Of a DNA stretch of 64,000 bases, positions 44,076 through 61,404 are shown piece by piece. Source of the DNA: an uncultured Woeseiaceae bacterium (GTDB lineage: Bacteria > Pseudomonadota > Gammaproteobacteria > Steroidobacterales > Woeseiaceae); the NCBI GenBank assembly GCA_964427415.1, contig CAYRUH010000006.1, positions 7,426 through 71,425 on the forward strand. The letters are read 5' to 3'. A program made the position numbers and the translations under genes. Under the pieces are notes generated by a model. The model was not told where the DNA came from and made no database searches. It was given only the letters and a program-made list of their open reading frames with translations. Positions within the stretch are counted from its first letter, which is position 1. Every line of letters starts with the position of its first letter.

Positions 44076-46421
44076 TCACAGCGTGGCCAGCAACTCCTCC
44101 GCTTCCTGCCGATGCGCATAGTCGTCATCGGCAGCCGACCAAACTTCGAGCGCGGATTCCAGCAGCGGCCTCGCGCGTGCCGGGTCACCTTCACCGATAT
44201 GGACCTTGGCGAGTGTCAGCTTGGCGAAACCGTAGGTCGGGAACACCTTCAGCACGCGCTCGAGCACGTCGCGGGCCTTTTCCGGCGCGCCCGCCTCGAG
44301 GTACAGCTCGGCGATGGCGACGTAGACCGACGATGAACTGAGATTGCCGACCATTACCTGCAGGATGGACTTGTCCAGCAGCTCGCGGGCGCGGTCCGTT
44401 TCGCGGATGGCCGTCGCGAAATCGCCGTCCCAGATCGCGATCTTGGCGGTCTCGGTGGCGATGAACGACTTGAAGATCTCGGGATACTGGCCCATCGACT
44501 GCCGGCTCATCGCCGCGCGCTCCCGGAATGCCTCGCGGTCGTCGGTGCGGGCATGGATCTCCGTATAGGTGAAGTTCATGAACGCGTCGAAGGGCGGCTG
44601 CAGCTGTGCGGAAATCGCGTCGGCATTCGCGAGTGCCTCGTCGAAGCGTCCGAGCAGCAGCAGCAGGCTGGAGCGCTGGTTCTCCAGGTTCATCAACCGC
44701 ACCATCGGCGGCACGAAGGTCCGGCTGAGTTCGACAATCTCTACATGCAGAGCGAGCGCGCGCTCGACCTGTCCGCGCACGAGCGCGATTTCGGTCTGCG
44801 CGCTCAGCACCTCCACTCGCTGCTCCGGGTTGAGCGAATCGCTCAGCTGCGCAGCCAGGCGTTGTTCCGCCGCGGTGTAGTCGCCACGGGCTGCCTCGAT
44901 GCGGGCCAGTGCCAGCTCCGAGGCACGGGGGGCGTCGGCCAGCACCGCCGCATCCTCGAGCGATGCCCGGGCCTTGTCCAGATCGCCGGCGGCCTGGTAG
45001 ACGGCGGCCAGCTGTCGGTGCGCGCCGGCGCTATCGGGCCGGCTCTCCAGGTACAGCCTCAGGTAATTCGCGGCGGCCTCGTAGTCACCGCGTTGCTGCT
45101 CCAGGCCGGCCATCTGGCGATAGACGCCGACCGCCAGCGGGTCGAGTTCCAGTAGGCGGTCGTAGGCGGCGCGCGCCTTCTCCAGACCCTCGTCGCCGCC
45201 CTGCAGCCGTGCCAGCCGCGCCTGCTGCTCGTAGGCCCGGGTGGCGTTCGGCTGTACCTCCGTCCACATGTCGAGCACCCGCAGTGCGCGTTCGTAGTCG
45301 CCGTCGAAGACGTAGCGGTTCGCTCTCAGCACGAACCGGCTGGCCTCCGAGAGACGGTAGCTGTTCCTGAGGCCCGCTGCGGCGGCGGCCCGCGCAGACT
45401 CGATATCGCCTGCCAGGTAATAGGAGATCGAGAGTTCGCCGCTGGCCTCGGCGAAATCGGGGTCTTCCTCGAGCGCGCGGCCCAGTTCGGCGATGCCCTG
45501 CTCGAAATCGTTGTTCAGGCCGATCGCGACGATGCCGGTGGTGTAGTGCCGCAGCGCTTCCAGCGAGTCGCTGAAATGCTGCGCGAGCGGGTCGTCGCTG
45601 CGGTTCTCGCCCGGCGAGATGTCCAGGTAATCCAGCAGGGCCTCGCTGACGTCGTCGACGCCGGCCAGCCAGTCGTCGGCGGCTACGGTGTGGGTGCCGA
45701 TCTCGTCGCCACTCTCGGCGTCGATCAATTTGGCAGTGATGATCAGCGTATCGCCGTCGGTCCTGAACCGGCCGGTGATGAATGCGGCGCTGCGGCGGTC
45801 TCTGACGATCTGCACGCGCAGTGCGGGGGGTTCGTCGCGCAGCGAGTCGTAACCGCGGTCCCGGAGCTCGCTCTTCAGCGAGGTCGAATCGAGCGGTGTC
45901 TCCACGGTGACCACCGGCGATACACGATTCATGTCGTGGGAGAGCATGAAGGGGAGGCCGTAGGTCAGCCAGTCCAGATCGCTGTTGCCGGACTGGTTCT
46001 CCCAGAAGAAGGCGACGACCTCCCGGTGATAGCCCTGCCGGGCCACCTCGAATTCCCGCACGGCGCCGGTCTCGTCGGTGACCTGCACGGTCTCGGTCGC
46101 CGCCTCGACAAGAAGCGACGGTCCGGTGACGTAAAGTATGCCGACCGCGAGCGCGGCGTTCAGCGGGATGACCACCCGTTCGGTGCGGGTCCAGCGGTCC
46201 TTGCCCGGCGCGCCGTGGTTGTAGGCAAAGAGGATGACCGCCGGCAACATCACCAGCATGGCGACGAACACGTAGGAAGTCAGGTTCGGCGGCAGGGCGG
46301 AACGCTCGCTGACCCAGTCGCCGAGCTCGATCACCAGCCATGACGCCGCGATGTACATGCCGACAATCTGCGGCACGCGCCGGTGCATCAGGTTGTGCAG
46401 CACTGAGCCCTCGGCGGACAT
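44076..46421 (-). CDS. membrane-anchored tetratricopeptide-repeat (TPR) protein
   Basis: 781-aa ORF. Three N-terminal TM segments, a middle domain, then many TPR-like helical pairs (e.g. GDYEAAANYLRLYLESRPDSAGAHRQLAAVYQAAGDLDKA). Confidence 0.8.
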   Translation of the reverse strand: MSAEGSVLHNLMHRRVPQIVGMYIAASWLVIELGDWVSERSALPPNLTSYVFVAMLVMLPAVILFAYNHGAPGKDRWTRTERVVIPLNAALAVGILYVTGPSLLVEAATETVQVTDETGAVREFEVARQGYHREVVAFFWENQSGNSDLDWLTYGLPFMLSHDMNRVSPVVTVETPLDSTSLKSELRDRGYDSLRDEPPALRVQIVRDRRSAAFITGRFRTDGDTLIITAKLIDAESGDEIGTHTVAADDWLAGVDDVSEALLDYLDISPGENRSDDPLAQHFSDSLEALRHYTTGIVAIGLNNDFEQGIAELGRALEEDPDFAEASGELSISYYLAGDIESARAAAAAGLRNSYRLSEASRFVLRANRYVFDGDYERALRVLDMWTEVQPNATRAYEQQARLARLQGGDEGLEKARAAYDRLLELDPLAVGVYRQMAGLEQQRGDYEAAANYLRLYLESRPDSAGAHRQLAAVYQAAGDLDKARASLEDAAVLADAPRASELALARIEAARGDYTAAEQRLAAQLSDSLNPEQRVEVLSAQTEIALVRGQVERALALHVEIVELSRTFVPPMVRLMNLENQRSSLLLLLGRFDEALANADAISAQLQPPFDAFMNFTYTEIHARTDDREAFRERAAMSRQSMGQYPEIFKSFIATETAKIAIWDGDFATAIRETDRARELLDKSILQVMVGNLSSSSVYVAIAELYLEAGAPEKARDVLERVLKVFPTYGFAKLTLAKVHIGEGDPARARPLLESALEVWSAADDDYAHRQEAEELLATL

Positions 46422-46632
46422 GGGCCGGCCCTTCTCTCCCTGCCAGCGGCGAGTATAGCCGATCGGCTGTCAAGGCTATCGACCGCTGTATAGCGTTTGT
46501 CAGATTCGGGGAAACGAGGCACCAATGCGTTTGTCGGTGAACAAAGCCCTGCCCCGGATGCGCGTTCTGCCAGACAGCGGTATCGCTTCTGCGGTGCTGC
46601 AGGAGCACCGGTCCGGCGTTCGAAAGATACGC

Positions 46633-47076
46633 TCAGGTGGCGGGTTCATTACCGTCGTCGATGAATTCGATGCCTTCCTGCTCGCACCACTCCCGCAGGG
46701 CAGCAAGCGTTTCGGACTCCTCGTATCGATACCACTGTTCCAGCTGATCGTTGCGCTCGAGCAACGCCTTGAAGCGGGAATACGCGCCCTTGCTGCGAAA
46801 GATATCTCGGACCTCATCATAAAACTCCGGCAGCTCCGCGCGAACAAATCGGAACACCAGGCTCTTTCCCAGGTCCAGGTCCATCTTGTGCGGAACGGCG
46901 ATATACAAAGCCGGATTATCAACATCGTCGGGCGCCGGTTCCGTATCAGCGACAGCCTCGGACACCCAGAAAATTTCGCCAGCCTGCCGTGATATGTAGG
47001 CGGCACATTCGTACAGTGCAAGGGAGCTGACGAAATCGTACGCCAGCTCCAGATCCTTGAGTCTTACCCGGGTCAT
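46633..47076 (-). CDS. hypothetical acidic protein (putative integron cassette ORF)
   Basis: 147-aa ORF in the lower-GC block. Its ATG lies 17 nt after the GTTAGAC core of the upstream attC-like site. No family recognised with confidence. Confidence 0.6.
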   Translation of the reverse strand: MTRVRLKDLELAYDFVSSLALYECAAYISRQAGEIFWVSEAVADTEPAPDDVDNPALYIAVPHKMDLDLGKSLVFRFVRAELPEFYDEVRDIFRSKGAYSRFKALLERNDQLEQWYRYEESETLAALREWCEQEGIEFIDDGNEPAT

Positions 47077-47093
47077 TTTGCTGTTCGCCGGCT

Positions 47094-47189
47094 GTCTAAC
47101 GTTCGAGCACAGCCGTGGGCAGCATCATGCCGGTGACCGAGGGCTGCAACAAGGGGTCAGGCCACGCTGTGCGCCGCGCCCCGTTCAAG
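47094..47189 (-). other. attC-like recombination site (about 96 nt)
   Basis: Minus strand reads CTTGAAC (overlaps the TGA stop of ORF 47185..47631)-GGGGCGCG-GCACAGCGTGG...CCAC[G]GCTGTGC-TCGAAC-GTTAGAC. Terminal AAC/GTT triplets are present, the 3' core fits GTTRRRY, and the internal arms pair with one bulged G. Confidence 0.5.
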
Positions 47190-47631
47190 AGCTGCGAACC
47201 ACCTGGATATTGAACTCCAGACGGATCTCTTCAAGCGATCGATCCAGGTAGTCGATGTGCTCAGCCCACGGCCAAGGCTTGCTCATTTGCCTGGCGCAGA
47301 TGAATGCGCGGGGCGACTTGGCAACCAGCTTGAAGATGTGCCGCGCGAGGTGGCGCCAGCTGTACTGCTTGAACAGGGCGAAAGCATCAGCCTCGGCATA
47401 ACCAGTGAGGTGCTTCCAAAAGCCCAGGGTGGTTCCAAAGATGGTGAATATCTTCAGCACACCCTCTCCGAAAAGCGAGGTATCGCAGCCGAAGATAACA
47501 TGCGCCGTGTCATGGCAGCGGAAAAATTCCTGCGCTTCAGGTGACACATCTCTTGCGGAGAATACGGCGGCATTTTGTTCATAGAACCGCCTGACACCCT
47601 CTCGAAGGGTAAGTGCAGTGTCGATATTCAC
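47185..47631 (-). CDS. Coq4-like metal-motif protein (putative integron cassette ORF)
   Basis: 148-aa ORF (GTG start) preceded by the AAGGAAGGAAG Shine-Dalgarno sequence. Contains CHDTAHVIFGCDTSLFGE, i.e. HDxxH-x11-E exactly. Confidence 0.65.
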   Translation of the reverse strand: MNIDTALTLREGVRRFYEQNAAVFSARDVSPEAQEFFRCHDTAHVIFGCDTSLFGEGVLKIFTIFGTTLGFWKHLTGYAEADAFALFKQYSWRHLARHIFKLVAKSPRAFICARQMSKPWPWAEHIDYLDRSLEEIRLEFNIQVVRSS

Positions 47632-47655
47632 CGGGTGCCGCTTCCTTCCTTAGCT

Positions 47656-47720
47656 GCCTAACGCCTAACGCCTCGCTTCAGCCGCGCGACAATCGCCTCA
47701 GCTGCAAGCGTTGGTTATGC
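47656..47720 (-). other. attC-like recombination site (58-65 nt, 3' core duplicated)
   Basis: Minus strand reads GCATAAC-CAA-CGCTT[G]CAGC-TGAGGCGATTGTCGCGCG-GCTGAAGCG-AGGC-GTTAGGC-GTTAGGC. The 5' 7-mer is 6/7 complementary to the GTTAGGC core (GTTRRRY). The arms pair perfectly apart from one extrahelical G. The next ORF's RBS starts 4 nt downstream. Confidence 0.6.
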
Positions 47721-47756
47721 ATTGTTACATGAACCTTCGACGCCTGAATGCGGACA

Positions 47757-48527
47757 CTCCACCTGCCAGCGAGATTTGTAGAGTGCGCAAACGGTCAGGG
47801 CCGGCGAAAGGTGTGGTTGGTCAGGAATACCAGGCTTTTGCGGGTATCGGGGTCGCGATAGCGGATACGCCGCAAGTACGCCGGGTAGTTTTGCGAGGCG
47901 TAGAAGCCGTTCAATGCCACGGTCTGGTCGCAGATCAGTCCGCAGCTGCGATCGACGGGGGCAGAGTACAGTCGCCGCGCATCGAGGTTTTTCTTGGCGC
48001 GAGTGACGAAGAAGCTGCCGGCCTGATTGAGGCGATAGACCCGCTCAAAGTCGAGATAGCCGCGATTCATGATGTAGAAGGCGCCCGGCTCGGGCAGCAG
48101 CATATCGAGGATGTTGACGTCGTGGAGGCGCCCGTCGGAGACGTGAATAAAGCTGGGGATCGCCCCCCCGCAGGTCGAGCAAGGTATGCACCTTCACCGC
48201 CGCCTTGGTGCTGCGGAAATTCGCCCATGGGAACAACGACAGACACAGATCGATCGTGGTGGAGTCGAGTGCATAAACGGTGTTATCGAGTTCCGCCCCG
48301 AGCGAGTCGCTGGCGTAGAGCTTGCGGGCTTGCGCTGCGAGGCAGCTCTCGATGTCGCGCAGGCTCTCGCGATAGGTGAGCTGGGCGAAGGCCGTGACGC
48401 GGAACTGCTCGGCGCAGGGCAGCGTGCGAATCCGATGGTTGCCTTGGTATCGCTTCACGATGCGGTGGAAGGTGGTCCACGGCAGGAAGTCCATGACTTG
48501 GGCGAACAATGTCTTGCCGGCATACAT
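47757..48527 (-). pseudogene. IS4-family (DUF4372 + DDE) transposase, two frameshifts and 3'-truncated
   Basis: Track ORFs 48045..48527 and 47795..48103 are consecutive parts of one transposase (MYAGKTLFAQVMDFLPWTTF...LTYRESLRDIE...LDLRG / IPSFIHVSDGRLHDVNILD...FVTRAKKN...). The frame changes at the C7 run 48163-48169 and again near 47806-47812. A third frame continues ALTVCALYKSRWQVE, then homology stops at about 47757. The expected C-terminal quarter is absent. Confidence 0.8.
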
Positions 48528-48939
48528 CGGCGTTCCTCGGAAACGGGGTTCCGAGACGGTCTCCGAGAGGGCAAGTCAGGTTCAAGTCGAAACCACCTCA
48601 AAAGGGCCGTTTTTGAAAATCAAATCAGACGCTTGGCTGCAGGCCCGGCGCAGTTAACCGGACAGTAGTGATGGCAGGACTAATTCGCGCATTACGTTTA
48701 CTTTGCCGTCGGATTAGCATTCTTCTTCTGGGCTCCACCAAGGATTGCTGCTGCAGCAGCTGCATAGATAGCTGCAACTGATCCGTAGATAGACGGCGTG
48801 CCGGGAATTGACGAAGACATTGCAATGCCGATAAACAGGCCAGCACCGCCGAAAGCAATTCCGGCGAGCGCATATGTGTATCTAGCCGTCGTTGTATTCC
48901 TTGTTCGGTGTCAAGAACGACTCGATCTATTGAAACCTA

Positions 48940-49028
48940 GCATAACGACGTACATGAGGGGCGTTTTTTTGGGAGGGTAGCCCGAAGGGCGCGGCAGGAA
49001 AACATCCCAGCCCATGTACTTGTTAGCC
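48940..49028 (-). other. attC-like recombination site (89 nt)
   Basis: Minus strand reads GGCTAAC-AA-GTACATGGGC...CCCCTCATGTAC-GTC-GTTATGC. The terminal 7-mers approximate RYYYAAC/GTTRRRY and are 5/7 complementary. There is a perfect 7-bp inner stem GTACATG/CATGTAC with flanking bulges. Confidence 0.6.
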
Positions 49029-49057
49029 ATCAAATACACCGCGGTAAACACGCTTGA

Positions 49058-49132
49058 TTAACCTCAATGTGGCAATAAATCAGGCCGCGATTTCCCGTTC
49101 GACTGCCTGATTTATTGCTACATTGAGGTTAC
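49058..49132. mobile_element. 75-bp miniature element made of two IS1380-type terminal inverted repeats (MITE-like, internally deleted IS)
   Basis: TAACCTCAATGTGGCAATAAATCAG (49059-49083) and its reverse complement with one mismatch (49107-49131), separated by 23 nt. The left about 50 nt match the left end of the IS remnant at 54982-55031 with 4 mismatches, including the last transposase codons (AVEREIAA* versus AVERAIAA*). Confidence 0.75.
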
Positions 49133-49240
49133 TCCCCTCTCTTATTCCGATTGTGCAAGCCTTTATACTACAAAAATAGCAGTAGTCAGGGATGTTGGAG
49201 TTCGCTAGGTTCCGGCAGGAGACAATGGGAGGATTCAGCA

Positions 49241-50542
49241 ATGCGATGGTTGTGCGGATTGGTACTGGTATTTTCAACGTTCAATTCCGGATTTATTGCA
49301 GCCGAAGCTACGGCATCGAACCAATCCGAAATTGTCGTTGCCTGGAATGAAGTCATTTTTAAGATGGCAGAGGCCGAGGACGGCTTTCTCACTCTGAAAG
49401 GGGTTCGTACGGCGGCAATGACACATCTCGCCATCCACGATGCGATATCGCACATCCACGATCAGTTCTCGACTGTCAGACATGACAAATCAGACAAAAA
49501 TGCAGAATCCGTCGCTGCAGCAAGCCAGGCCGCATTCACCATTGCCGTTGACCAGTATCCGGACCAATTAGCGACTCTCGACGCCCTAAATGATCGGTGG
49601 CTGGCAACTGTTGCGAGCGGAGGCGCGAAACAGAAGGGAATTGCGCTCGGTGAAGCGGCAGCGAATGCGGTTCTTAACGATCGAGCGGATGACGGCTGGG
49701 ATACCTCCGCCGACTACAAGTGGCACCCAATGGCCCCGGGGGTTTACGCAGAGTTTTCCGAGCACAGCGACACTCCGCAGGGTTTCATCTTTGGCGCTGG
49801 TTGGGGGAGTGCAAAAGGATTTGCATTAACGAGCCCGGATCAGTTTCGCTCGCCACCGCCGCCAACCATCGAAAGCGATGCCTACGCAAAGGCGTTTAAC
49901 GAAGTAAAATACGTTGGCCGATTCCAAAGCCTTGGTCGAAGCCCGGATCAGACTCATTTGGCGCTTTGGTGGAAAGACTTTGCGGAAAATTCGCACAATC
50001 GACTTGCGCGCGATCTCGCCATTAAAGAGAATCTGACACTATCCGAATCCGCAAGACTGTTCGCGTTGTTGAACGCGAGCATCTTCGACGCGTATGTCAG
50101 CGTATTCAATAACAAGTTTCACTACAATCATTGGCGACCTTATACCGCCATTCGCTGGGCGGCTAACGACGGCAACCCGAATACGGAGGCAGAGGAAAGC
50201 TGGACCAACACCCACCGCCACACCTATGCCTTTCCGTCCTATCCGTCAGCTCACGGAACAGCCTGTGCTGCAGCAATGTCCACGTTCGCAGAGGTGTTTG
50301 GAGACGATTACGCATTCACGATGCGCACTCCGATGGTCGATATCGCGGGACCGTTTTCCGGGAAGATCGAGATGCATCCGCCCACACGTGAGTTTGACAA
50401 TTTTTCCGAAGCTGCTGCGGAATGTGCCATCTCACGACTCTATCTAGGCATTCATTTTCGCTATGACTCCGATGCAGGTTATGAACTTGGTCAGCAAGTT
50501 GGACGCCAGGTGATCGAAAATCTACTGACACAAGTCCCGTAG
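49241..50542 (+). CDS. secreted PAP2-superfamily protein, vanadium-haloperoxidase / acid-phosphatase-like
   Basis: Start at ATG 49241 (MRWLCGLVLVFSTFNSGFIAAEA signal peptide). Three PAP2 motifs: KFHYNHWRP (KxxxxxxRP), PSYPSAHG (PSGH-type) and SRLYLGIHFRYD (SRxxxxxHxxxD). Confidence 0.8.
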   Translation: MRWLCGLVLVFSTFNSGFIAAEATASNQSEIVVAWNEVIFKMAEAEDGFLTLKGVRTAAMTHLAIHDAISHIHDQFSTVRHDKSDKNAESVAAASQAAFTIAVDQYPDQLATLDALNDRWLATVASGGAKQKGIALGEAAANAVLNDRADDGWDTSADYKWHPMAPGVYAEFSEHSDTPQGFIFGAGWGSAKGFALTSPDQFRSPPPPTIESDAYAKAFNEVKYVGRFQSLGRSPDQTHLALWWKDFAENSHNRLARDLAIKENLTLSESARLFALLNASIFDAYVSVFNNKFHYNHWRPYTAIRWAANDGNPNTEAEESWTNTHRHTYAFPSYPSAHGTACAAAMSTFAEVFGDDYAFTMRTPMVDIAGPFSGKIEMHPPTREFDNFSEAAAECAISRLYLGIHFRYDSDAGYELGQQVGRQVIENLLTQVP

Positions 50543-50681
50543 CCCTTCAAACGCGGAATAGTCACTCACGTTTGCCGCAAGAACGGTTGTACTGCGCAGA
50601 AGAGCCCGACGGCAACTGAACCAATTGGGCTTTCCACTTCGACAATACCGAACCGGAGACGCCGTCGGACTGAGCCTGTGC

Positions 50682-51257
50682 CTATCTTGGCTTCCACGTT
50701 TCCTTATCCATCACGAAATACTTTGCGTCGGGCGCGCTGGCAATGCGCTTGCCAAACGGCGTCATGCCCAGCCGCTCCATTACTTGAAACGACCCGGTGT
50801 TCGGTAAGTCGGCACCGGCGATAACTCGCGGTATCTCCAAGGTGTTGAATGAGTACTCGAGCAGTGCCGCTGACGCTTCGGTGGCATACCCCATCCCCCA
50901 AACGTTGGGGTGCAGTCCGTAGAGAAGTTCAACTTCACTCGACCCTTCAGGATGTCGAAGGGCAACAAAGCCTATAAGCTCGTTGCCGGCCGGGTGCGCG
51001 TTTTCACGCAGCGTCCAGAGACCCAGTCCTTCGTTTTTCGCGTCCTCCATGCTGGATACAACCGTTTCGCAGGCTCGCGAGGCTGAAATTTTCGCGTCGT
51101 CCCAAAGATACCTGCGAACTGCGGGCAGCGCCCAAAGTGCGTGGAGCCGACTGACATCTGCCTCCCTCACACGGCAGAGACTCAACCGCTCAGTGGTAAT
51201 GATCGCGCTCACAACCTCAAACTCCCACAGATCGCTCCAAGGCACGTAACACCGCAA
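50682..51257 (-). CDS. GNAT-family N-acetyltransferase (RimJ/RimL-like)
   Basis: 191-aa ORF. TERLSLCRVREAD...IGFVAL...WGMGYATEA...LEIPRVIAGADLPNTGSFQVMERLGM. The start may be an internal GTG. Confidence 0.85.
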   Translation of the reverse strand: MRCYVPWSDLWEFEVVSAIITTERLSLCRVREADVSRLHALWALPAVRRYLWDDAKISASRACETVVSSMEDAKNEGLGLWTLRENAHPAGNELIGFVALRHPEGSSEVELLYGLHPNVWGMGYATEASAALLEYSFNTLEIPRVIAGADLPNTGSFQVMERLGMTPFGKRIASAPDAKYFVMDKETWKPR

Positions 51258-51368
51258 GAGGTGGACATAGCCTTACGTCGCAATGGTCGTCGCAATATCA
51301 AGGCAATTGTCTTGACATCGATCCGCTTCACACTACATTTGAATCGCGATCGATGCGTACACACGAAC

Positions 51369-53915
51369 TCATGGCGGCGATACCGAAAAAGTCGCCGTCA
51401 CCGTGCGCGGTCCGTCCATGCTCTGGATGAAACAGCCCTCCTCGCCCTGGTCTTCGTCGCAGCCGCTCCAGCCGATACCGGTGGTGCCGGGTTCGGGAAT
51501 GGGGGTAAGCAGTACCGCCATGCCCAACGGAATTTCCTCGTCGCAGTCGTTGCCGTTCGTTCCGCACAGGATGCCGCCATCGGCGCCGCGGACGGTACCG
51601 CCGGGCCCGCCATTGATCAACACCTGCACGGTCAGCAGGGCGGTTTCTGTAGCAGTGTCGGTAACGTTCACACTCTCCGTCGTTTCGCTCGTGTTGCCAG
51701 CGTTGTCGGTGATTCTCAAGCGCGCCAGGTAGCTACCGGCGGCCGGATAACTGTGGCTCACGCTTTGGCCGCTGGCATCGAAGCTGCCGTCATCCTCAAA
51801 ATCCCACTGGTGGCTGGCGATGTCACCGGTCGAGTCCGCGGCGTCGAAGACGATGTTGGCATCGACGGTGGCGGGGTTCGGCGTGACGGTAAAGCTGGCG
51901 AGCAGTTCTGTTGGTGGCTCTCCCGGCTCTTCCGGCTCGCCGCGGCCGAAGCGGATCTTGCAATGCGTCGGGCCATTGACCTGCACGCTGGTAGTCAACA
52001 AGCCGGGGAAGCCGGTGCAGTCCCATTGCCATTGCGATTCACTGACAGAGGAGTTTTCATCCGGCGTCGCGGTCAGGGTCACCGTGGTGCCGGCCGGCAG
52101 ATTCTGCCAGCACATGATGCCGCGGCAATAGAGGGTTTGGTCGATGTCGGTGGTGGGGTCGGTGCCGCTGACGTCGCTGGTCACCTCGCCGCTGCCGAGG
52201 CCCTGTTTGTAAACGATGAGCCGGTGACCGATATCATTCACGCAGCTGTTGTCATCGCCCAGGGTCAGCACCGGTGTGGCACCCAGCGCGTTGATGCCGG
52301 TGCCGTCCCCGCGTTGGCCAGAAAGATTGTCGCCCCAGGCGTAGACGCGGCTGCCCAGGTCACGGCCCGTACCCGCTTCCTGGCAGGCGTTGATGTGGCG
52401 CCCAACGCTGACCGCCATGGCGTGGGAAGCACCCGCGGCGATCTGCCTGACGCCATCGAAATCGTTGTTGATCAACGGCGTGCTCAAGGCCTGGATGGGG
52501 GCAGGTTCCTGGACGACGCCGGCAATGCCCAGGCCGCCGCCCTGGCCCAAGCCAACGTCGCCCCATATCCAGACACTGCCTTCCGGGTCGCCGGTAACGG
52601 GGTCGCCGACGACTGCCGCCATACCAAATGCCCCGCCCGCGGCGATGCGCGAGACATTGCGCAAACCCGGAATGACGGCTGGCTCTGGGTCGCGGTCATT
52701 CGCAATGTCGGTGACACGCCCAAGCTGATTGCTATCGTTATCTCCCCAACTCCAGACACGATTTTCTCCATCGAGCGCCAGATAGAACGATCTCGCACCT
52801 ATCGATTCAGCGCCACCGGCCGCGATCTCACGTATATCCGGTAAACCATCTTTCACCTCCATGCTGTAACCTTCCGTGACAAGATCCTCGGGCTGATAAG
52901 CCTCCCAAACTTGATTGCTGTCATCCAGCGCCAAAAAGCCACCGCCGACATTGCGACCTCCTCCCGCGGCGATCGCCCTGATCCCATCGAGAAAGCCGTC
53001 TGCGGTAGGAATTGCAACCGGCACGAAGCCGTTATCCGGATAGACGGATTCGCCCTCTCGCTCGCGCACCCAGAGGGTCGTCAAAACGCCCCAGCCGAAA
53101 ACCTGGCCGTCACTGCGTAGCGCATACGACATGTCGTCGCCGGCCGCTACCGCCACGATATTGCCCAAGCCTGAGACCTGCACGGGAGTCTCTCGATCGG
53201 TATTAGTGCCGTCACCGAGAATACCGTCAATGTTTCTGCCCCAAGCCCATACCGCACCATCGGAATCCACAGCGACCGAATGAGAAGTCCCGCCGGCAAT
53301 CGCAACAATGTTGCTCAGATTGGCGATCCGCGCCGGCTGTGAACGATCTCGCCGAGAGCCATCGCCCAACTGGCCGCGGTCATTCGAACCCCAGGCCCAG
53401 ACACTGCCATCAGCGGTCAGCGCCAGAGAATGGGCCTCACCGGCCGCCAATTCGACGACCGGCGGCGCGGCTGCGGGCGATGCCAGAAACAGGTTGACGG
53501 GCACCTTCAAGGGCGTGCTGCCGCGGAATCCGCTCGCAGCGTAGTGATCATACTCGTGGTCGTCGGCGCTCAACCCCGCGTCAACGGTGCGCCACTCGCA
53601 GCCGACGTCGAAATCAGAGTCGGGGCAGGCTTCCGACGGGCCGATGTTGAGATACCGGGCCAACAACTCGGTTATGGTCAGTGTGCCGAAATCAAAACCC
53701 ACCGGATCGCCGGTAAAGGAGTCGACCGCGGTTGTTTCGACGGTTTCGCTTTCCCCCGGTCTTAGGACGACGGCCACGGGTTGCGATTGAAGAGTTGTGT
53801 TGTCGCCGATGGGAGTCGCTTCACCTCCTCCGACGTTGCCCTGCCCGCACCCGGCGAGAACGAGCAGCAAGAAAATGGCCATCAGGCGGGTCTTGTTGAT
53901 TGTTGCTTGGATCAT
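51369..53915 (-). CDS. RCC1-repeat (beta-propeller) lipoprotein with a PKD domain and two Cys-containing beta-repeat modules
   Basis: Start at ATG 53915 (MIQATINKTRLMAIFLLLVLAGCGQ lipobox). Repeated xVWAWGxNxxGQLGDG units (SVWAWGSNDRGQLGDG, AVWAWGRNIDGILGDG, RVWSWGDNDSNQLG, RVYAWGDNLSGQRGDG). The PKD-like segment is FTVTPNPATVDANIVFDAADS...HQWDFEDDG...SHSYPAAGSYLARLRITDNAGN. Confidence 0.85.
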   Translation of the reverse strand: MIQATINKTRLMAIFLLLVLAGCGQGNVGGGEATPIGDNTTLQSQPVAVVLRPGESETVETTAVDSFTGDPVGFDFGTLTITELLARYLNIGPSEACPDSDFDVGCEWRTVDAGLSADDHEYDHYAASGFRGSTPLKVPVNLFLASPAAAPPVVELAAGEAHSLALTADGSVWAWGSNDRGQLGDGSRRDRSQPARIANLSNIVAIAGGTSHSVAVDSDGAVWAWGRNIDGILGDGTNTDRETPVQVSGLGNIVAVAAGDDMSYALRSDGQVFGWGVLTTLWVREREGESVYPDNGFVPVAIPTADGFLDGIRAIAAGGGRNVGGGFLALDDSNQVWEAYQPEDLVTEGYSMEVKDGLPDIREIAAGGAESIGARSFYLALDGENRVWSWGDNDSNQLGRVTDIANDRDPEPAVIPGLRNVSRIAAGGAFGMAAVVGDPVTGDPEGSVWIWGDVGLGQGGGLGIAGVVQEPAPIQALSTPLINNDFDGVRQIAAGASHAMAVSVGRHINACQEAGTGRDLGSRVYAWGDNLSGQRGDGTGINALGATPVLTLGDDNSCVNDIGHRLIVYKQGLGSGEVTSDVSGTDPTTDIDQTLYCRGIMCWQNLPAGTTVTLTATPDENSSVSESQWQWDCTGFPGLLTTSVQVNGPTHCKIRFGRGEPEEPGEPPTELLASFTVTPNPATVDANIVFDAADSTGDIASHQWDFEDDGSFDASGQSVSHSYPAAGSYLARLRITDNAGNTSETTESVNVTDTATETALLTVQVLINGGPGGTVRGADGGILCGTNGNDCDEEIPLGMAVLLTPIPEPGTTGIGWSGCDEDQGEEGCFIQSMDGPRTVTATFSVSPP

Positions 53916-54054
53916 TGTTGGCTCCTTCGTCCTTGTAGGGAGTGCCCGACGGCATGTCGCTGGATCGATCCCCCCGAAGTCGAAAGGCACGACTCTAGCG
54001 GCGAGTTCTTGTATCAACTAGTATCGTTTCTGTAGTAACTCAGGAGCCGCGGCG

Positions 54055-54825
54055 ATGCCAACGCGTACACCGACGTCATCTACCTACGGACAATATTGTC
54101 CCCTTGCCCTCGCCGCCGAGCTGTTGTGCCGACGTTGGTCGATCCTGGTGATCAGCCGCGTGTTGGACGGCTGCCGGACGTACAGCGAGATCCATAGAGG
54201 CGTACCGAAGATCTCGCCGTCGCTGCTGTCGACGCGTCTGTCGGAGCTCGAGGATGCCGGGCTGATCCGGCGCGAAAAAATTAAGGGTGAGAAACGCTAT
54301 CGGTATCTGCCGACCGACGCTGGTGCGGACCTTGAGCCCGTGATCAACAGCATGGCTGTCTGGGGTCAGCAGTGGTCGCGGGATATGAAGATGGATGATC
54401 TCGATCCCGCTTTCCTCGCCTGGAGCATGTCAACGCGCATCGACATCGACGCAATGCCGCCGGGGCGTACCGTGATCGAGTTCGAGTTCTCTGGAACACC
54501 GGCCGGACTTCGGCGCTTCTGGTTGATTAGCGAAGACGGCAAGATCGACATGTGTTTGAAGGACCCGGGCTACGAGACAGATTTGTACGTCCGGTCGAAC
54601 ATGCGTCGATTCGTTGAGGCGTGGCGCGGTTTTCGCGATCTCAGAGCGGAGATACGCGCCGGCACTATTCGCTTGACGGGACCGAAAGCACTACGTTCGG
54701 CATTCCCGAACTGGATGCTGTTGAGCGGTCTTGCGATTCATCGACGCCGCGCGACTGGCCGCGAAAGCAAGTTGAGCGAATGCGGTCGAACGGTCAGGTT
54801 GAAACAGCGCGCTACAAAAGCATAG
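54055..54825 (+). CDS. HxlR-family winged-helix transcriptional regulator with a C-terminal extension
   Basis: 256-aa ORF. YCPLALAAELLCRRWSILVISRVLDGCRTYSEIHRGVPKISPSLLSTRLSELEDAGLI is the HxlR signature. Divergent from the RCC1 lipoprotein gene. Confidence 0.85.
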   Translation: MPTRTPTSSTYGQYCPLALAAELLCRRWSILVISRVLDGCRTYSEIHRGVPKISPSLLSTRLSELEDAGLIRREKIKGEKRYRYLPTDAGADLEPVINSMAVWGQQWSRDMKMDDLDPAFLAWSMSTRIDIDAMPPGRTVIEFEFSGTPAGLRRFWLISEDGKIDMCLKDPGYETDLYVRSNMRRFVEAWRGFRDLRAEIRAGTIRLTGPKALRSAFPNWMLLSGLAIHRRRATGRESKLSECGRTVRLKQRATKA

Positions 54826-54978
54826 CTGAAGCGGAAACCGGATTAATGCCCATTTGACCGACTGGGCCGAGGCCGGTGCATTCGAGAACGCCGCGGCCGC
54901 AACGATCGCGGCAGAACTTGCGGTATCTGATGAACGGTCCTTTACTATTCCCTGCAAGGCCATTTCGCAACCAGTGAC

Positions 54979-55726
54979 TAGCCTCAATGTCGCAATAAAT
55001 CAGGCCGCGATCGCCCGTTCGACGGCCTGAAACCGCTCCCGGATAATCGCGTTGCTGCCGACATCGAGGGTTGATCGGCCGTCGGGCCGCACGAGCAGGC
55101 CGGCCCGATTGATGAACTGATAACGCAAGGTGTGAATCGACTGGAACAGGCGGATCGTGCGGCGCTTGCGGTTCGAGCCTCGGCGCTCCGTTGTCCGGGT
55201 CTGCAGCGCGCGCATCAGATTGAACGCGAGAATGCTCATGATCTGCGAGGCGCTGTTGGCCTCGTAGCGCTGCGTCGGCACGCAGTCGAAGGCAAAGCCG
55301 CCCTTGAGCTCGCCGTAAACCTTCTCGTGAGTCCCGCGGCCGCAGAGGAAGAACCACAAGGTTCGCCCCGAGACCGGCTTGTTGGTCACGATCACCAGCA
55401 CCAAAAGCATCATTGGCACCGAACCGAAATCGCTGGCCGGCAACGCCGCCGGGGCGCCGCGCAGATGACCCTTGAAATCCAGCGCTCGAAGAAACCGGGC
55501 GATCAGCTCCAGCCCGGCGAACGACGTCAGCCCTGGCGCCTCGTAGCGCAGCGACAAATCTCCATTGATCCGGCGCCGCAAATCTGCTCTGCTTAACCTC
55601 ACGAGATGTGGCCTCTCCTGGATGGCTTTGTTTAGGTCTGCAAACCCAACAATACCAGCAGTGACGCCCATCTCGCCTTATCCCTTCACCCGATCAATCG
55701 CCCGGTTTTTGCAACATCGAGGTTAA
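54979..55726 (-). mobile_element. IS1380-family insertion sequence remnant (about 0.75 kb, internally deleted; transposase ORF 55000..55671)
   Basis: The 223-aa ORF keeps the N-terminal LTSFAGLELI motif. It also keeps the C-terminal R-x3-E-x6-K box (GRGTHEKVYGELK), the ANSASQIMSILAFNL segment and the TLRYQFINRAGLLVR tail. The central DDE region (about half the expected length) is missing. Terminal repeats are CCTCAATGTCGCAATAAATCAG (left) and TTTTTGCAACATCGAGG (right). Exact ends are uncertain by 3 nt either way. Confidence 0.75.
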
Positions 55727-55861
55727 CTATATCTATTTGACGATTATGTCATGAGAGAAAACTATCACAAGCGGCGAATAATGGATGAGGCGCGTCGGCA
55801 AGTTCCCGAATACTCTGAGGCTGATGGGGAGATATGTTTCGCGAACCAGTAGGCAGGATAT

Positions 55862-56050
55862 TTGACGTCATCGCAGCCGCCCAAATTGCTTGATCGGGTC
55901 CGCGAAACGATCCGGTTGCACCAGTACAGTGATCAAACAGAGAAGGCATATGTCAGCTGGATTCGACGCTGAATCATCTTCCACGGAAAGCGCCAGCCGG
56001 CGGACCTGGGCGCGATGGAGGCCACCGCTCGACGCGTGGAAGCTGGGGCG
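55862..56050 (+). pseudogene. intI: integron-integrase-type tyrosine recombinase, N-terminal SAM-like domain remnant
   Basis: My translation from TTG 55862 is LTSSQPPKLLDRVRETIRLHQYSDQTEKAYVSWIRR*IIFHGKRQPADLGAMEATA. It aligns residue for residue with the IntI1 segment [49 protein letters not shown]. An in-frame TGA replaces the conserved Phe. Homology is lost after about 56010, and the catalytic domain is absent because the next gene ends at 56107. Confidence 0.7.
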
Positions 56051-56106
56051 TTAACGCGGTGAGGAGTCCGATGGATACGTGATCCGGGCTTGCAGCTCTG
56101 CCGGCT

Positions 56107-58833
56107 TCAGCTTTGCTGGTCCAGCGCGCGGCGGAACGGCGCGATGATCCACTCCTGCATGCCGTCGCGTTCCATCGCGGCGATGGTCTTGCGGAGCAGC
56201 GCGGTGCCTTCTTCCCGGCGGCCGTCGAGAAGCAGCGCCCAGCCCCTGAGCGCATCGATGCGTGCCGGCCACTCATCGCCCGGGCTGCCCGCGGCGAGCT
56301 GCGCGGGGTCGAGGCCGTCGATCAGCGCCGTCGCCGCTCCGCCGTCGCCCGTGTCGAGCAGCCCCTGCGCCAGATAGTAGTTCATCACCTGCACGCCGGG
56401 AGTGCCCGGGCCCATCATGCGCTCGAAGACGTCGCGCGCGGCGACAAGTCTCGGGATGGCGTTACCGGCCTCGCCCAGCTGGACCAGGATGACGCCTTCA
56501 TTGCCTCCCGCCATGACGCAGGTGAGGTGGTCCGCGCCCTGAGTGGCACAGGTCGTTGCGCGCACATCGCTGATCAACGGCAGGGCTTCGGCCCAGCGCC
56601 CGCCCGCCGCGTAGAGATTACCGAGCACACTCTTGCCTTCTGCCAGTTGGTTCGAACCAGGGCCGAAGGCCGCGGCCAGTGCGCGGACGGCCTGGTTGAG
56701 CGCGAGCTCGGCGTCCTCGAGTCGTCCGGCATGCAGTAGCGCAGCGCCATAATGCAGTATTGCCGTCGCGCGGCTCGAGTCGGCGACGCCTGCCTCCGCG
56801 AAGCGCGCTTCATCCTGCAGCGATTCGAGCAAATCCACCGCTTCGTCCTGGCGGCCGCTGCGGACATACCCCTGAGCAAGGTCCAGTTTGAGCCCGTGTC
56901 TGGCGCGCGCGTTGTCCGGCCCCGCACGATCGAGCCGCGCCAGCGCTTCTTCGTAATAGGTCACGGCCGGTTCGATCTGCGCCTGCATCAGGTGCAGGCG
57001 TCCGCGCGCACGCGCCGCGGCGAGGGCGACGGCGTCGTCCTGCTCGAGCAGCGCCGCGGCATGCCGGTCGGCGTCATCCAGAACCTCGGCTGCTGCGGCG
57101 TAGTCAGAGGCGTTGACCAGCGATTCGCCGAGCCGGTAACCGGCCACGAGCGTCCGTGGATGATCGGGCCCGAGCATCGTTGCAAACAGTGACGCCACCC
57201 GGCGGTGATGTTCAGCGGCGGTCCTGAAGTCCTGGAGGCCGGTGTAGATTTCCCCCGCAGTCTCGCGGATCGTCGCTTCCATGGCGGGATCGGCGGCGAA
57301 ACGGGCCTCGATGCGATCCGCCGCACGGGAGAGCGCTTCCCGCAGCGTCGCGTCATAGCCGGCGCCGGGTTCACGCGGATCCGCATTTATCATGATGTCG
57401 CGCAGGAACGTTGCCGTGGCCTCGGCGCGTGCGGCCTGTTCCAGGGCTGTGTGCTGAGCCGCTCTCGCCCGCAGAAAGAGGAGGCTGCTGGCGGCAACGC
57501 CAACCAGCAGTACGACGCCTGCCGCAATGGCCCAGGGACGGCGCGAGCGGGCGCGCTCGAGCGCCGCCTGGGCGGCGAGTGCCCGTGATTCCGCTGCTTC
57601 CAGTCGTGCGCGCTCGCGACGGCGCTCCTCGAGCCCGCGCAGGCGCTGCGCCAGTTCAGAGGCAGAGACGATTCGCTGCGCGGGATTGCCGGCGGTCGCC
57701 CCGGCGATATCCAGTGCGACCAGCTCGTCGGCAATGTCGCTTTCCCAGCCGGTGGTGAGCGGTCTGCCGAGGTCGGCCGCGAGTATCTGATACAGCAGCA
57801 TGCCGAGTGCGTAGACGTCGCTCTTTACCGTGGCTGCCTCGCCGGCGATGATCTCCGGGGCGATATAAAGCGGGGTGCCGAAGCTCGAATCGCTGGTGGA
57901 GTCCACCGTCCGCGTGAGCCCGAGGGGCGTCACGCCCAGTTCGCCCAGTCGTCCGGGTTCCATCAGGCGGCCGCTGCCGAAATCGGTGAGCCGCACCTGC
58001 ACTCTGCCGTCGCCATCCTCTTCGATCAGGATGTTGGCGGGTTTCAGGTCCTTGTGCAGCACGCCCACGTCATGGGCGGCGGCGACTGCGTCGATCGCCT
58101 GCAGGGCAAGCTCCAGTCGTGCCTGCGGCGCCAGTGCGGCGAGCCTGGCGTTATCTTCAGCCCAGGCCGGCAGACTGTCTCCGCCATACTCGCACTCGAG
58201 AAAAAACGGCTCGCTTTCGAAGTTCCAGTCGACGACACGCACGATATCGGCGCGCTCACCGAGTGCTTCGCGCAGGATGCGTGAGAGCGTCGCCTCGCGC
58301 TTGAGCGCGGCCAGTCTTTCGCCGTCCGGGCTGAACTTGTAGACCCGGTGCTCGCCGGTCTTGCCGTGGCGGGCGAGCCATACCTCGCTGGCGCCGGCGC
58401 CGGAAAGCTGGCGCGTCAGGCGGAAGTTCGGCCGGCCGGGAACAGCCTGACCGGTCTTCAGGTCGTGCTGGCTGACGAGACGCCGGCCCGCCGCGACACG
58501 CTCCACCTTGCCATCGAGTCGGTATCCGATGCGGGGCTTGGTGACGATGAATCCGGCGTTGGCCTCGCCGAGTGCCTTGCGCAATTTGGCCACCGCATTG
58601 GCAAGCACATTCTCGACAGTGATGCGGCCTTCCCAGACGGTGTCGAGGAGTTCTTCCTTGGTGACGACTTCGCCGGCATGACGGAGCAGGGTACTCAGCA
58701 CCTCGAGGGGGCGGCGTTCGAGCTCGACGGGCAGTCCGGCCACCCGCAGCTCGAAGCGCGATTCGTCAAACTCTGCCGCGCCGAAACGGTAGAGATAAAG
58801 CGCCCCGTGGCGCGACGGCTCCGAATCGCTCAT
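56107..58833 (-). CDS. hybrid regulator: OmpR/PhoB-type winged-helix DNA-binding domain + Ser/Thr protein kinase + TM segment + TPR sensor region
   Basis: 908-aa ORF. wHTH: LEVLSTLLRHAGEVVTKEELLDTVW...TKPRIGYRL. Kinase: G-loop SGAGASEVW, VYKF lysine, HKDLKPANIL, TDFGSG, YIAPE. TM: WAIAAGVVLLVGVAASSLLFL. About 430 aa of TPR-like repeats follow. Confidence 0.85.
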   Translation of the reverse strand: MSDSEPSRHGALYLYRFGAAEFDESRFELRVAGLPVELERRPLEVLSTLLRHAGEVVTKEELLDTVWEGRITVENVLANAVAKLRKALGEANAGFIVTKPRIGYRLDGKVERVAAGRRLVSQHDLKTGQAVPGRPNFRLTRQLSGAGASEVWLARHGKTGEHRVYKFSPDGERLAALKREATLSRILREALGERADIVRVVDWNFESEPFFLECEYGGDSLPAWAEDNARLAALAPQARLELALQAIDAVAAAHDVGVLHKDLKPANILIEEDGDGRVQVRLTDFGSGRLMEPGRLGELGVTPLGLTRTVDSTSDSSFGTPLYIAPEIIAGEAATVKSDVYALGMLLYQILAADLGRPLTTGWESDIADELVALDIAGATAGNPAQRIVSASELAQRLRGLEERRRERARLEAAESRALAAQAALERARSRRPWAIAAGVVLLVGVAASSLLFLRARAAQHTALEQAARAEATATFLRDIMINADPREPGAGYDATLREALSRAADRIEARFAADPAMEATIRETAGEIYTGLQDFRTAAEHHRRVASLFATMLGPDHPRTLVAGYRLGESLVNASDYAAAAEVLDDADRHAAALLEQDDAVALAAARARGRLHLMQAQIEPAVTYYEEALARLDRAGPDNARARHGLKLDLAQGYVRSGRQDEAVDLLESLQDEARFAEAGVADSSRATAILHYGAALLHAGRLEDAELALNQAVRALAAAFGPGSNQLAEGKSVLGNLYAAGGRWAEALPLISDVRATTCATQGADHLTCVMAGGNEGVILVQLGEAGNAIPRLVAARDVFERMMGPGTPGVQVMNYYLAQGLLDTGDGGAATALIDGLDPAQLAAGSPGDEWPARIDALRGWALLLDGRREEGTALLRKTIAAMERDGMQEWIIAPFRRALDQQS

Positions 58834-58957
58834 GGGACTTGCCGCTCCCTGTCTGGAATGCGCCCAGAGGTGATGGCCGGCGCGTCAACGCGTTCCGCGC
58901 GTCTTCCGAAGCGCCGTGGGCAGACACAAGCCTCTGATCCGTCGCAACAATCTAGCG

Positions 58958-58977
58958 CGTTAGCAATCCGTTAGCAA
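58958..58977. promoter_or_regulatory. Tandem direct repeat CGTTAGCAA-n2-CGTTAGCAA (11-bp period); candidate binding site for the adjacent winged-helix regulator
   Basis: Read directly at 58958-58966 and 58969-58977. It lies in the 289-bp divergent intergenic region between the hybrid regulator (start 58833) and the membrane-protein/lipoprotein pair (start 59123). Confidence 0.4.
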
Positions 58978-59122
58978 CGCGTGAAGGTTTCGGTGACGGA
59001 CTGCGTCATCTTGCTGCGTGGCGGCCCCTATCAGAGGGATAGCGGAGTCTCCCGCGCCAGGCAGCGCGGCCGCCGCGCATCAAGTGAGCATCGAACGTGG
59101 AAACAGAAGAAGGAATAACGAC

Positions 59123-59509
59123 ATGAAAATTGCAATCGTCATACTGGCTGTTCTCGGGGCGCTGTCCTCGGGGTTTCTGGGGGTCAACTGGATGAACGAT
59201 CTGGGCGCGCTTGGCGAGATGAGCGAGCTGGAACGGATGGCGGCCAAGTCCATGGCTGCCGCGCAGGGACAGTCGCTGGACAAGATGGGCGCGGCGGCCT
59301 TCATCCTCATCTTCGGCGCCATGGCGGGATTCGTCGGCGCCTTCTTCGCGATGAAGAATCGCCACTCGCTCGCCGGCGGGCTGCTCCTCGGCGCCGGCAT
59401 CCTGCCCGTTCTGGTCCAGCCGCAGGCCGTGGTGTTCACGGCGTTACTGATCATCGGCGGTGGGCTCGCGTTTTTCATGCATTCGAAGAGCAAGGCGGTA
59501 GCATCATGA
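59123..59509 (+). CDS. hypothetical integral membrane protein (4 TM)
   Basis: 128 aa from ATG 59123 (MKIAIVILAVLGALSSGFLGV...). GGAATAA SD-like sequence upstream. ATGA overlap with the next ORF. Confidence 0.6.
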   Translation: MKIAIVILAVLGALSSGFLGVNWMNDLGALGEMSELERMAAKSMAAAQGQSLDKMGAAAFILIFGAMAGFVGAFFAMKNRHSLAGGLLLGAGILPVLVQPQAVVFTALLIIGGGLAFFMHSKSKAVAS

Positions 59510-60705: not shown

Positions 60706-60710
60706 TCCGG

Positions 60711-60730
60711 CCTCGCCGCGGCCGCGGCGA
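60711..60730 (+). terminator. perfect 20-nt GC-rich palindrome (possible transcript-end hairpin, no U-tract)
   Basis: CTCGCCGCGG/CCGCGGCGAG begins 6 nt after the lipoprotein stop. Not a canonical intrinsic terminator. Confidence 0.3.
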
Positions 60731-60957
60731 GCGGCTCCTGCGAAAAAACGGAGTTTCCGGGCGCTTCTAATGGGATCCTCCGGCTTGCGAAAATGTACGA
60801 TGACGCTCGGCCGGAGGATCAACCCGCCAGCAGTGCCGGTCTCAGGGCGATTTCCAGCGGTATCATGTGAGCGAGTTTTTCCGCCGCCTCCGGATCGTGA
60901 TTATCGCGGCACTGCAACCGATCGATCAGCGTGCCTTAATCGTCTCCCAGCCCAACG

Positions 60958-61404
60958 TCATCGCCTTGCCCGGAATGCGTTGAATAAACGTATGCTACCG
61001 AGCAGTACGAATGGAAGACCTGTGACAGCAAATAGGGTTGCTTTAGCCCAAAGCCGGAGGAAGGAGGCCACGATTGGCGGACGTTGATCAAGTGGGTCGT
61101 AGCGCACGGAGATGCTTTCACCGATCTCGTAGAGCCGGCCCCCTGCGCCTACCTGGCTCGTAAAGCGCCGCGCACGACCAGCCTGGTCGGTGAACTCCAC
61201 AACGGGGTAGTACAGCAGCGCTGACACCTTGCTGGGCGCCGACTCGTAGCCGGATTCATAATCGACAACGATACCCGGTACCGCCTTCATTCCATCCAGT
61301 AGGTCGGCAGATGCGGTCCATGCCTGCAGCGCATGGTACCAGGGGACCAGACCGACCATTAAGAGGATCAAGGGCGGTAGAACACGTCGATTATTTTCGT
61401 CCAT
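60958..61404 (-). CDS. DUF3592-like membrane protein (TM - beta domain - TM)
   Basis: 148 aa from the internal ATG 61404 (MDENNRRVLPPLILLMVGLVPWY...YYPVVEFTD...RYDP...). Upstream track codons are Arg/Pro-rich and overlap the cysteine-synthase 3' end. Confidence 0.55.
   Translation of the reverse strand: MDENNRRVLPPLILLMVGLVPWYHALQAWTASADLLDGMKAVPGIVVDYESGYESAPSKVSALLYYPVVEFTDQAGRARRFTSQVGAGGRLYEIGESISVRYDPLDQRPPIVASFLRLWAKATLFAVTGLPFVLLGSIRLFNAFRARR

Follow-up and report, generated by a model that had tools for sequence, protein, structure and literature searches.

A degraded, probably horizontally acquired integron in a low-GC island of a Woeseiaceae bacterium

The stretch analysed here (the window) comprises 64,000 nucleotides of contig CAYRUH010000006.1 from an uncultured Woeseiaceae bacterium (assembly GCA_964427415.1), and it contains a low-GC island that is very probably a horizontally acquired integron which has lost its function. 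In working integrons, the tyrosine recombinase IntI joins the folded bottom strand of the attC hairpin of a cassette with the attI site, and promoterless cassettes line up in one orientation downstream of a promoter next to intI, a gene transcribed divergently from them. The island holds an N-terminal remnant of an integron integrase gene (delta-intI), one intact and one mutated attC site, two cassette open reading frames (ORFs) and the debris of insertion sequences (ISs); the coordinates are collected in Table 1. A first-pass annotation, made from the letters of the window, had described the region as a decayed chromosomal integron cassette array. The decayed integron and its cassettes are borne out by the present analysis, but its residence in the chromosome is not, since the island is absent from relatives.

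The integrase remnant

In a tblastn comparison of the window with the class 1 integrase IntI1, the plus strand at 55865-56029 matched 59 aa at 51% identity (E=5e-11); there was no second IntI-like match in the window. The frame of delta-intI starts with a TTG codon at 55862 and contains an in-frame TGA at 55970-55972, and its similarity is gone after approximately 56029, which corresponds to about residue 63 of IntI1. Its sole NCBIfam matches are NF011946 'integron integrase' (E=2.5e-12, profile positions 15-63 of 337) and TIGR02249 (E=2e-9), its Pfam match is Phage_int_SAM_4, and it is 50-60% identical to the IntI N-termini of 91 integron loci. This remnant had gone unnoticed in the first-pass annotation. 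Its place is the outer end of the island, where it stands upstream of the minus-strand cassettes and points in the opposite direction, the canonical layout of an integron. Between the IS1380 fragment and delta-intI lie approximately 470 bp of A+T-rich DNA (55396-55861), the expected place of attI and the cassette promoter, with a GGTTAAC core-like motif at 55721-55727; attI sites are class-specific.

Construction and validation of the attC model

Integrons for a covariance model, R1, were sought in two sources. A tblastn search of plasmids with IntI1 turned up class 1 integrons (100% matches), of which 12 arrays were read; metagenome contigs were scanned with IntI1, which yielded 80 loci whose integrases are 70-100% identical to IntI1. 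The hairpins upstream of these integrases provided 100 distinct candidate attC sites with the dominant geometry R''(7)-5-L''(3 bp + 1 bulge + 6 bp)...L'(9)-6-R'(7), and this 5/6/3+bulge arrangement is the commonest in real sites (37 of the 58 that are well paired). R1 was trained on 36 non-redundant IntI-adjacent attC sites with their variable centres masked and six loci held out. On ten untrained loci, the six deliberately held out among them, it recovered 36 sites, every one on the cassette strand, with scores of 21.6-59.5 bits (E<0.01).

The non-integron background reached a maximum of 10.8 bits in approximately 220 kb on both strands. Default filters left nothing at E<=10 in 157 kb drawn from related genomes and from unrelated contexts; with the filters off, the best scores were 9.5 bits in 97 kb of related genomes, 10.8 bits in 58 kb of contexts of Coq4 homologues (see below) and 9.0 bits in the window outside the array region. 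Because the held-out arrays were recovered in the range given above and non-integron DNA did not exceed this maximum, R1 is a valid test for attC. The attC threshold of IntegronFinder is E<1.

The attC sites

The whole 64-kb window was searched with R1 on both strands with the filters off, and a local search covered 3.1 kb. Four attC sites had been proposed in the first-pass annotation together with a covariance-model check, and three of their 7-mer pairs are present on the minus strand as described (GGCTAAC...GTTATGC, GCATAAC...GTTAGGC and CTTGAAC...GTTAGAC). With R1, sites 2 and 3 stand well clear of the background, site 1 is marginal, and site 4 fails. Sites 2 and 3 lie on the same strand, 501 bp apart, with one ORF between them.

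Site 2 (GCATAAC-CAACG-CTT(G)CAGCTG...CGGCTGAAG-CGAGGC-GTTAGGC) has the canonical geometry R''(7)-5-L''(3 bp, bulged G, 6 bp)...L'(9)-6-R'(7), with spacers of 5 and 6. The 7-mers R''/R' (GCATAAC/GTTAGGC) are complementary at 6 of 7 positions, and the L boxes pair at 9 of 9 positions around the bulged G. The orientation of the site is fixed, because its reverse strand scores only 11.5 bits. The strong match supports its proposal as an attC, but the boundary first placed at 47656 was wrong by 7 nt. These extra nucleotides are a second GTTAGGC at 47656-47662, and the R' core thus stands twice in tandem at 47656-47669 (GTTAGGCGTTAGGC); the duplication may have arisen by slippage or be the scar of a recombination event.

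Site 3 (GCCTGAC-CCCTT-GTT(G)CAGCC...GGCTGTGC-TCGAAC-GTTAGAC) is decayed. According to R1, its 5' half reads GCCTGAC CCCTT GTTGCAGCC, with the conserved AAC of R'' changed to GAC, and its L boxes are in the same register as those of site 2 with two mismatches. The consensus applied here requires pairing 7-mers of the forms RYYYAAC (R'') and GTTRRRY (R'), with which site 3 agrees only in part (GCCTGAC). Its 3' end was correctly placed at first, whereas the 5' end lies at 47162 instead of 47189, with R''=GCCTGAC.

Site 1 (GGCTAAC-AAGTA-CATGGGCTGG...CCCCTCATG-TACGTC-GTTATGC) is the fourth-best R1 match in the window and coincides exactly with the coordinates first proposed. It has the canonical 5/6 spacing, with R''/R' (GGCTAAC/GTTATGC) complementary at 5 of 7 positions and the L boxes at 7 of 9. 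Its score does not set it apart from the background, and site 1 is regarded as a possible relic of an attC.

Apart from these sites, R1 found nothing above 5.3 bits in the island, including 49135-54975, and the local search showed no terminal attC after the last cassette, with no match in 46466-46632.

The cassette genes

The cassette of the Coq4-like ORF is complete in structure and consists of the TTAGGC left by attC 2, a ribosome-binding site (RBS; AAGGAAGGAAG, 11 nt after attC 2), the ORF and attC 3. The ORF is full length, having 93 homologues of approximately 148 aa with coverage up to 100%. Around one homologue (contig JBGSXL010000011.1 of GCA_041751425.1; locus L024, 1-16441) there is a row of small co-oriented genes encoding GFA, a methyltransferase, a PhdYeFM antitoxin, GNATs, a glyoxalase, DUF4336 and DUF2165, which are typical cassette cargo; R1 found no attC above 10.8 bits in this locus.

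The UPF0158-family ORF, the last cassette, starts 17 nt after attC 3. The first-pass statement that the RBS or start of the next ORF follows each site within 4-20 nt is thus accurate for sites 2 and 3 (11-17 nt). Its companion statement, that each site sits immediately after the stop of a small ORF and overlaps it in one case, was mistaken: before site 1 there is a miniature IS and no ORF, before site 2 a truncated IS4 transposase pseudogene and no cassette ORF, and site 3 begins 22 nt past the stop codon without overlap.

Four homologues of the UPF0158 ORF were examined (53-59% identity, on the five metagenomic or metagenome-assembled genome (MAG) contigs L108-L112), and in all four contexts, which are independent of one another, R1 placed attC matches on the strand of the gene. 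These flanking matches score 52 and 17.4 bits in L109, 17.6 and 14.2 bits in L108, 15.5 bits in L110/L111, and 10.1 and 15.4 bits in L112. Two of these contexts (three contigs: L108, 5604-6654; L110 and L111, 151-1457) have a gene with a PRiA4_ORF3 domain beside the UPF0158 gene, on its downstream side in one context and on its upstream side in the other; an attC-like match separates the two genes. Such a neighbour would fit a two-gene module. It seems unlikely that the UPF0158 subfamily is a widespread, recurrent cassette family with a specific function, for example one half of a toxin-antitoxin or defence pair, that was kept here after the integron platform died.

Upstream of these cassettes, the open frame at 48698-48910 has 70 codons. 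Its two hydrophobic segments are rich in glycine and alanine, there is no ATG, GTG or TTG before the first of them, and only the last 40 codons follow an ATG. The frame may be an N-terminally damaged cassette ORF, or it may have an unusual start.

The island and its relatives

Most of the window has a GC content of 65-72%, compared with 52-62% in the 46-56 kb stretch (composition along the window), as the first-pass annotation had remarked in calling the block A+T-richer than its surroundings. The window has the affinity of a Lentisalinibacter-like member of the Woeseiaceae, and the TPR gene at 44076-46421 encodes a protein with 88-93% identity to those of three Lentisalinibacter species and several Woeseiaceae MAGs. 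The island is flanked by the stop of a kinase/TPR gene (56107-58833, minus strand) and by the region upstream of the TPR gene (44076-46421, minus strand). In L. orientalis (L008) and in the MAG L005, BLAST shows the two flanks (56107 side and 46465 side) only approximately 30-36 bp apart, and for this reason the limits of the island are set at 46466-56106.

The island is missing from all seven of the related Lentisalinibacter/Woeseiaceae loci compared by BLAST, and the relatives other than L005 and L008 also lack 56107-61600. Because the relatives are without the whole island, a recent acquisition is favoured, and the island appears to be better described as a recently acquired, degraded fragment than as a resident chromosomal integron. 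Two contigs of the Logan metagenomes match the window at 100% identity. The variation in cassette content that the first-pass annotation suggested looking for at this locus was not seen, as look-ups with the exact proteins returned only window-identical contigs.

The interval from a conserved block, which starts at approximately 61617 and has a release-factor gene farther along (62626-63711), to the TPR gene has a different length in every relative (L003-L009). It measures approximately 120 bp in L006 and 0.6 kb in L009, consists of 1.4-1.8 kb of lower-GC DNA in L003 and L004, holds a 4.6-kb kinase/TPR segment in L005 and L008, and reaches 15 kb in the window (approximately 46459-61617). Judging from these comparisons, the locus appears to be a variable hot spot of recombination or insertion.

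A megablast search against plasmids gave no match to the island. PADLOC found no defence system among six island proteins, and neither PADLOC on these proteins nor the NCBIfam profiles detected a defence or resistance function. The promoter scan of 46.4-49.3 kb revealed no sigma-70-like promoter.

Insertion sequence debris

The IS4-family pseudogene fills the space from the 48698-48910 frame to attC 2 and ends approximately 37 nt before this site. The element at 49056-49134 is a near-perfect 30-bp hairpin whose arms are 93% complementary, and its arm and loop are 89% identical to 54975-55030, a third copy of the repeat that lies beside the truncated IS1380 transposase. Because arm and loop recur beside this transposase, the hairpin is taken as a miniature IS1380 derivative. 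The same 79-nt hairpin had come to the top of the energy scan described below as a candidate attC; it was rejected as an IS1380-family terminal repeat pair, and R1 gives no match to it.

The 5.8-kb module between the two IS1380 relics resembles a composite transposon insert. This IS1380-bracketed insert accounts both for the 6.8-kb gap that is free of attC sites and for the lack of an ORF preceding site 1.

Table 1. Features of the integron remnant and of the DNA around it (window coordinates)
Feature	Position	Strand	Evidence or remark
Low-GC island, all integron parts inside (9.6 kb)	46466-56106	.	GC profile and BLAST against related loci
UPF0158-family ORF, 147 aa, last cassette	46633-47076	-	Pfam PF03682, E=6e-7
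attC site 3, decayed	47094-47162	-	R1 18.4 bits, E=0.014 window-wide, 7e-4 local
Coq4-like cassette ORF, 148 aa	47185-47631	-	Pfam Coq4 21.7 bits, just below cut-off
attC site 2, intact	47663-47720	-	R1 35.8 bits, E=4e-7 window-wide
IS4-family transposase pseudogene, frameshifted, 3'-truncated	47757-48527	-	Pfam DUF4372; two-frame match to NCBIfam NF033592 (positions 92-151 and 175-270 of 332)
Open frame with two hydrophobic segments	48698-48910	-	Six-frame translation and ORF list
Possible decayed attC site 1	48940-49028	-	R1 10.0 bits, E=2.1 window-wide, 0.1 local
Miniature IS1380-family derivative, 79 bp	49056-49134	.	Two terminal inverted repeats, 19 nt apart
Non-cassette module, 5.8 kb	49135-54975	.	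Between two IS1380 relics; IS1380 ends in direct orientation
PAP2/vanadium-haloperoxidase-like gene (module)	49241-50542	+	Pfam
GNAT gene (module)	50682-51257	-	Pfam
RCC1 and PKD protein gene (module)	51369-54017	-	Pfam
HxlR regulator gene (module)	54055-54825	+	Pfam
Truncated IS1380-family element: terminal inverted repeat (54976-55005) and C-terminal third of transposase	54976-55395	-	NCBIfam NF033539 positions 310-418 of 419; Pfam DDE_Tnp_1_4
intI remnant (delta-intI), approximately the first 56 codons	55862-56029	+	tblastn with IntI1, NCBIfam, Pfam

Origin and fate of the island

From their shared island, their orientation and the IS debris, we infer that delta-intI and the attC cluster formerly belonged to one integron. 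Of the integrase gene, a stub of approximately 56 codons with a stop codon is left. The attI-proximal part appears to have been overwritten by IS1380 activity: it holds a truncated copy, which together with a miniature one encloses 5.8 kb of ordinary genes. Site 2 as an intact attC, site 3 as a mutated one and site 1 as a doubtful relic are retained in the distal part, and an IS4 pseudogene lies inside the first surviving cassette. The platform would then no longer be able to capture or shuffle cassettes by itself, and the two intact cassette ORFs would have become fixed accessory genes, expressed, if at all, by read-through or from internal promoters. attC 2 could still serve an integrase acting in trans as a substrate; that the site, with its tandem GTTAGGC core, is still in use by such an integrase seems unlikely.

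Several observations weigh against this reading. Delta-intI is 6.8 kb from the nearest attC (site 1), with no attC between them according to R1, and neither attI nor the cassette promoter Pc was identified, the segment 55396-55861 having been read by eye only. The score of site 1 lies inside the background range of 9.0-10.8 bits, and for this reason the site is treated as a possible relic only. Site 4 (46509-46624), which was thought to close the array, shows by eye a 5/5 spacing and arms that pair via G-T wobbles; it was dropped, as R1 gave no match to it even in the local search, listed down to 2.4 bits. R1 itself is purpose-built, with N-masked centres and a short calibration, and differs from the IntegronFinder model. 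The homologues of the Coq4-like ORF occur mostly in ordinary, attC-free contexts (L022-L027, no R1 match above 10.8 bits), and the bottom strands of the attC sites fold no better than shuffled sequences (z=-0.6 for site 2 and z=+0.6 for site 3).

The weak folding counts in favour of a rival view, in which chance hairpins, terminators or a repeat of the REP (repetitive extragenic palindromic) type, without relation to integrons, would account for the sites. The only site strand that reached z=-2.0 was the top strand of site 2 (-14.9 kcal/mol), and site 3 folded poorly. In a scan of all xxxxAAC...GTTxxxx pairs in the window by energy per nucleotide, site 2 ranked 20th of 322 and site 1 231st, and site 3 with its first boundaries failed the entry criterion. 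Rfam 15, searched at a permissive threshold over 42-60 kb, returned four chance-level matches and no attC family. Judged by folding and the energy scan alone, sites 1 and 3 resembled noise and the array looked like chance. However, real attC sites in this GC-rich background are known by the sequence and register of their arms and not by energy, and the energy tests were set aside as uninformative. When aligned in a common register with real attC sites, the arms of sites 1-3 resemble theirs position by position. The scores of 35.8 and 18.4 bits exceed the background maximum in approximately 220 kb, the strands are asymmetric, an integrase remnant is nearby, and no T-runs of the terminator type are present at the sites. 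Neither the 64-kb window nor 97 kb of related genomes contains a further copy with a score of more than 9.5 bits; over this DNA the sites do not form a dispersed repeat of the kind of the generic REP family that the first-pass annotation had named as an alternative. Taken as a whole, an origin unrelated to integrons is largely refuted and can hardly be credited.

It is also improbable that the attC cluster arose independently of delta-intI, through a working integrase from another part of the genome, or from a transient plasmid, that inserted cassettes at a secondary, non-attI site, delta-intI and the IS debris being passengers of the hot spot without connection to them. Off-target cassette insertion and IntI-made attC-site clusters that have no integron integrase (CALINs) are documented (PMC4889954; 10.1101/2022.09.11.507474), the locus is variable among the relatives, and 6.8 kb without an attC separate delta-intI from the sites; this gap, however, is accounted for by the IS1380-bracketed insert. 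Moreover, the order and orientation of the parts fit a single integron, and all of them share the atypical GC content and are absent from the relatives as one block. A working satellite array, whose cassettes are exchanged by an intact integrase encoded elsewhere in the genome, would agree with the intact attC 2 (35.8 bits), with two full-length cassette ORFs and with the fact that half of the CALINs occur in replicons that also encode IntI (PMC4889954). Yet attC 3 is mutated in the conserved AAC and mismatched in its L boxes, the last cassette is without an attC, an IS pseudogene sits undisturbed within the array, and the two metagenome contigs that carry the locus are identical to the window. 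A living array is accordingly regarded as highly improbable, and a single integron that lost its function remains the preferred account of the island.

Significance

The element points to integron-derived gene flow into the Woeseiaceae, which are abundant Gammaproteobacteria of marine sediments. A full-text search found no paper treating integrons in Woeseiaceae; in two papers each of the two words occurs a single time. The island also offers a worked example of how a CALIN may originate, in which the integrase would be lost down to an N-terminal stub and the array then broken up by ISs. The intact Coq4-like and UPF0158 genes can be flagged as mobile cargo, and the UPF0158 subfamily as a recurrent cassette gene, although the practical value of this is small. 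In general, the island is a common, well-described kind of genomic fossil and leaves the current view of integrons unchallenged.

Comparison with known systems

The individual sites are closest to those of class 1 mobile integrons. The attC of cmlA5 (GCCCAAC AAATC GCTGCAGCCG / CGGCTGAGC TCAGGC GTTAGGC) resembles site 2 (GCATAAC CAACG CTTGCAGCTG / CGGCTGAAG CGAGGC GTTAGGC) position by position, including the bulged G, and the L' of the aac(6')-Ib attC is identical to that of site 1 (CCCCTCATG). Unlike the class 1 integrons with their cmlA, aac(6')-Ib and aadA sites, the island has no resistance genes, no 5' or 3' conserved segment (5'-CS or 3'-CS) and no match to plasmid DNA, and its integrase stub is only about 51% identical to IntI1. 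Nor does it qualify as a complete integron, since the stub covers only positions 15-63 of the 337 in the IntI profile, contains the in-frame TGA, and has neither the catalytic C-terminal domain nor the IntI-specific additional domain. Sedentary chromosomal integrons are recognised by a conserved locus or more than 19 attC sites (PMC4889954); the island is present in none of the seven related loci and has two or three attC sites.

The chromosomal integrons of Xanthomonas with inactivated intI (10.1101/2025.06.18.660453) are similar in that the function of the integrase was lost and a frozen array, mostly of genes with unknown function, was left behind. In Xanthomonas, however, the platform is ancestral and occupies a conserved locus downstream of ilvD, whereas the present island is missing from the relatives examined; and intI was inactivated there by point mutations, while here it is almost wholly deleted.

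The nearest counterparts are the CALINs, of which 2961 were counted in the RefSeq survey of IntegronFinder 2.0 (10.1101/2022.02.28.482270). They have been proposed to be degraded integrons, often with IS elements and in a few cases with a nearby intI pseudogene (PMC4889954; 10.1101/2022.02.28.482270), and the routes to their origin include the loss of intI and IS-associated rearrangement (Cury et al. 2016, PMC4889954). The island is alike in its small array of co-oriented attC sites, its cassettes of unknown function and the ISs nearby, and is likewise read as a degraded integron. It differs from them in that an N-terminal stub of the integrase survives 6.8 kb away. A recognisable intI pseudogene was found within 10 kb of 15 of 279 CALINs (PMC4889954); because the stub is N-terminal, the published pseudogene screen, which uses the IntI C-terminal profile at a coverage of at least 50%, would miss it. 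Sites 2 and 3 correspond to the CALIN definition of at least two attC sites on one strand, less than 4 kb apart and with no integrase within 4 kb, and the element would be reported as a small CALIN.

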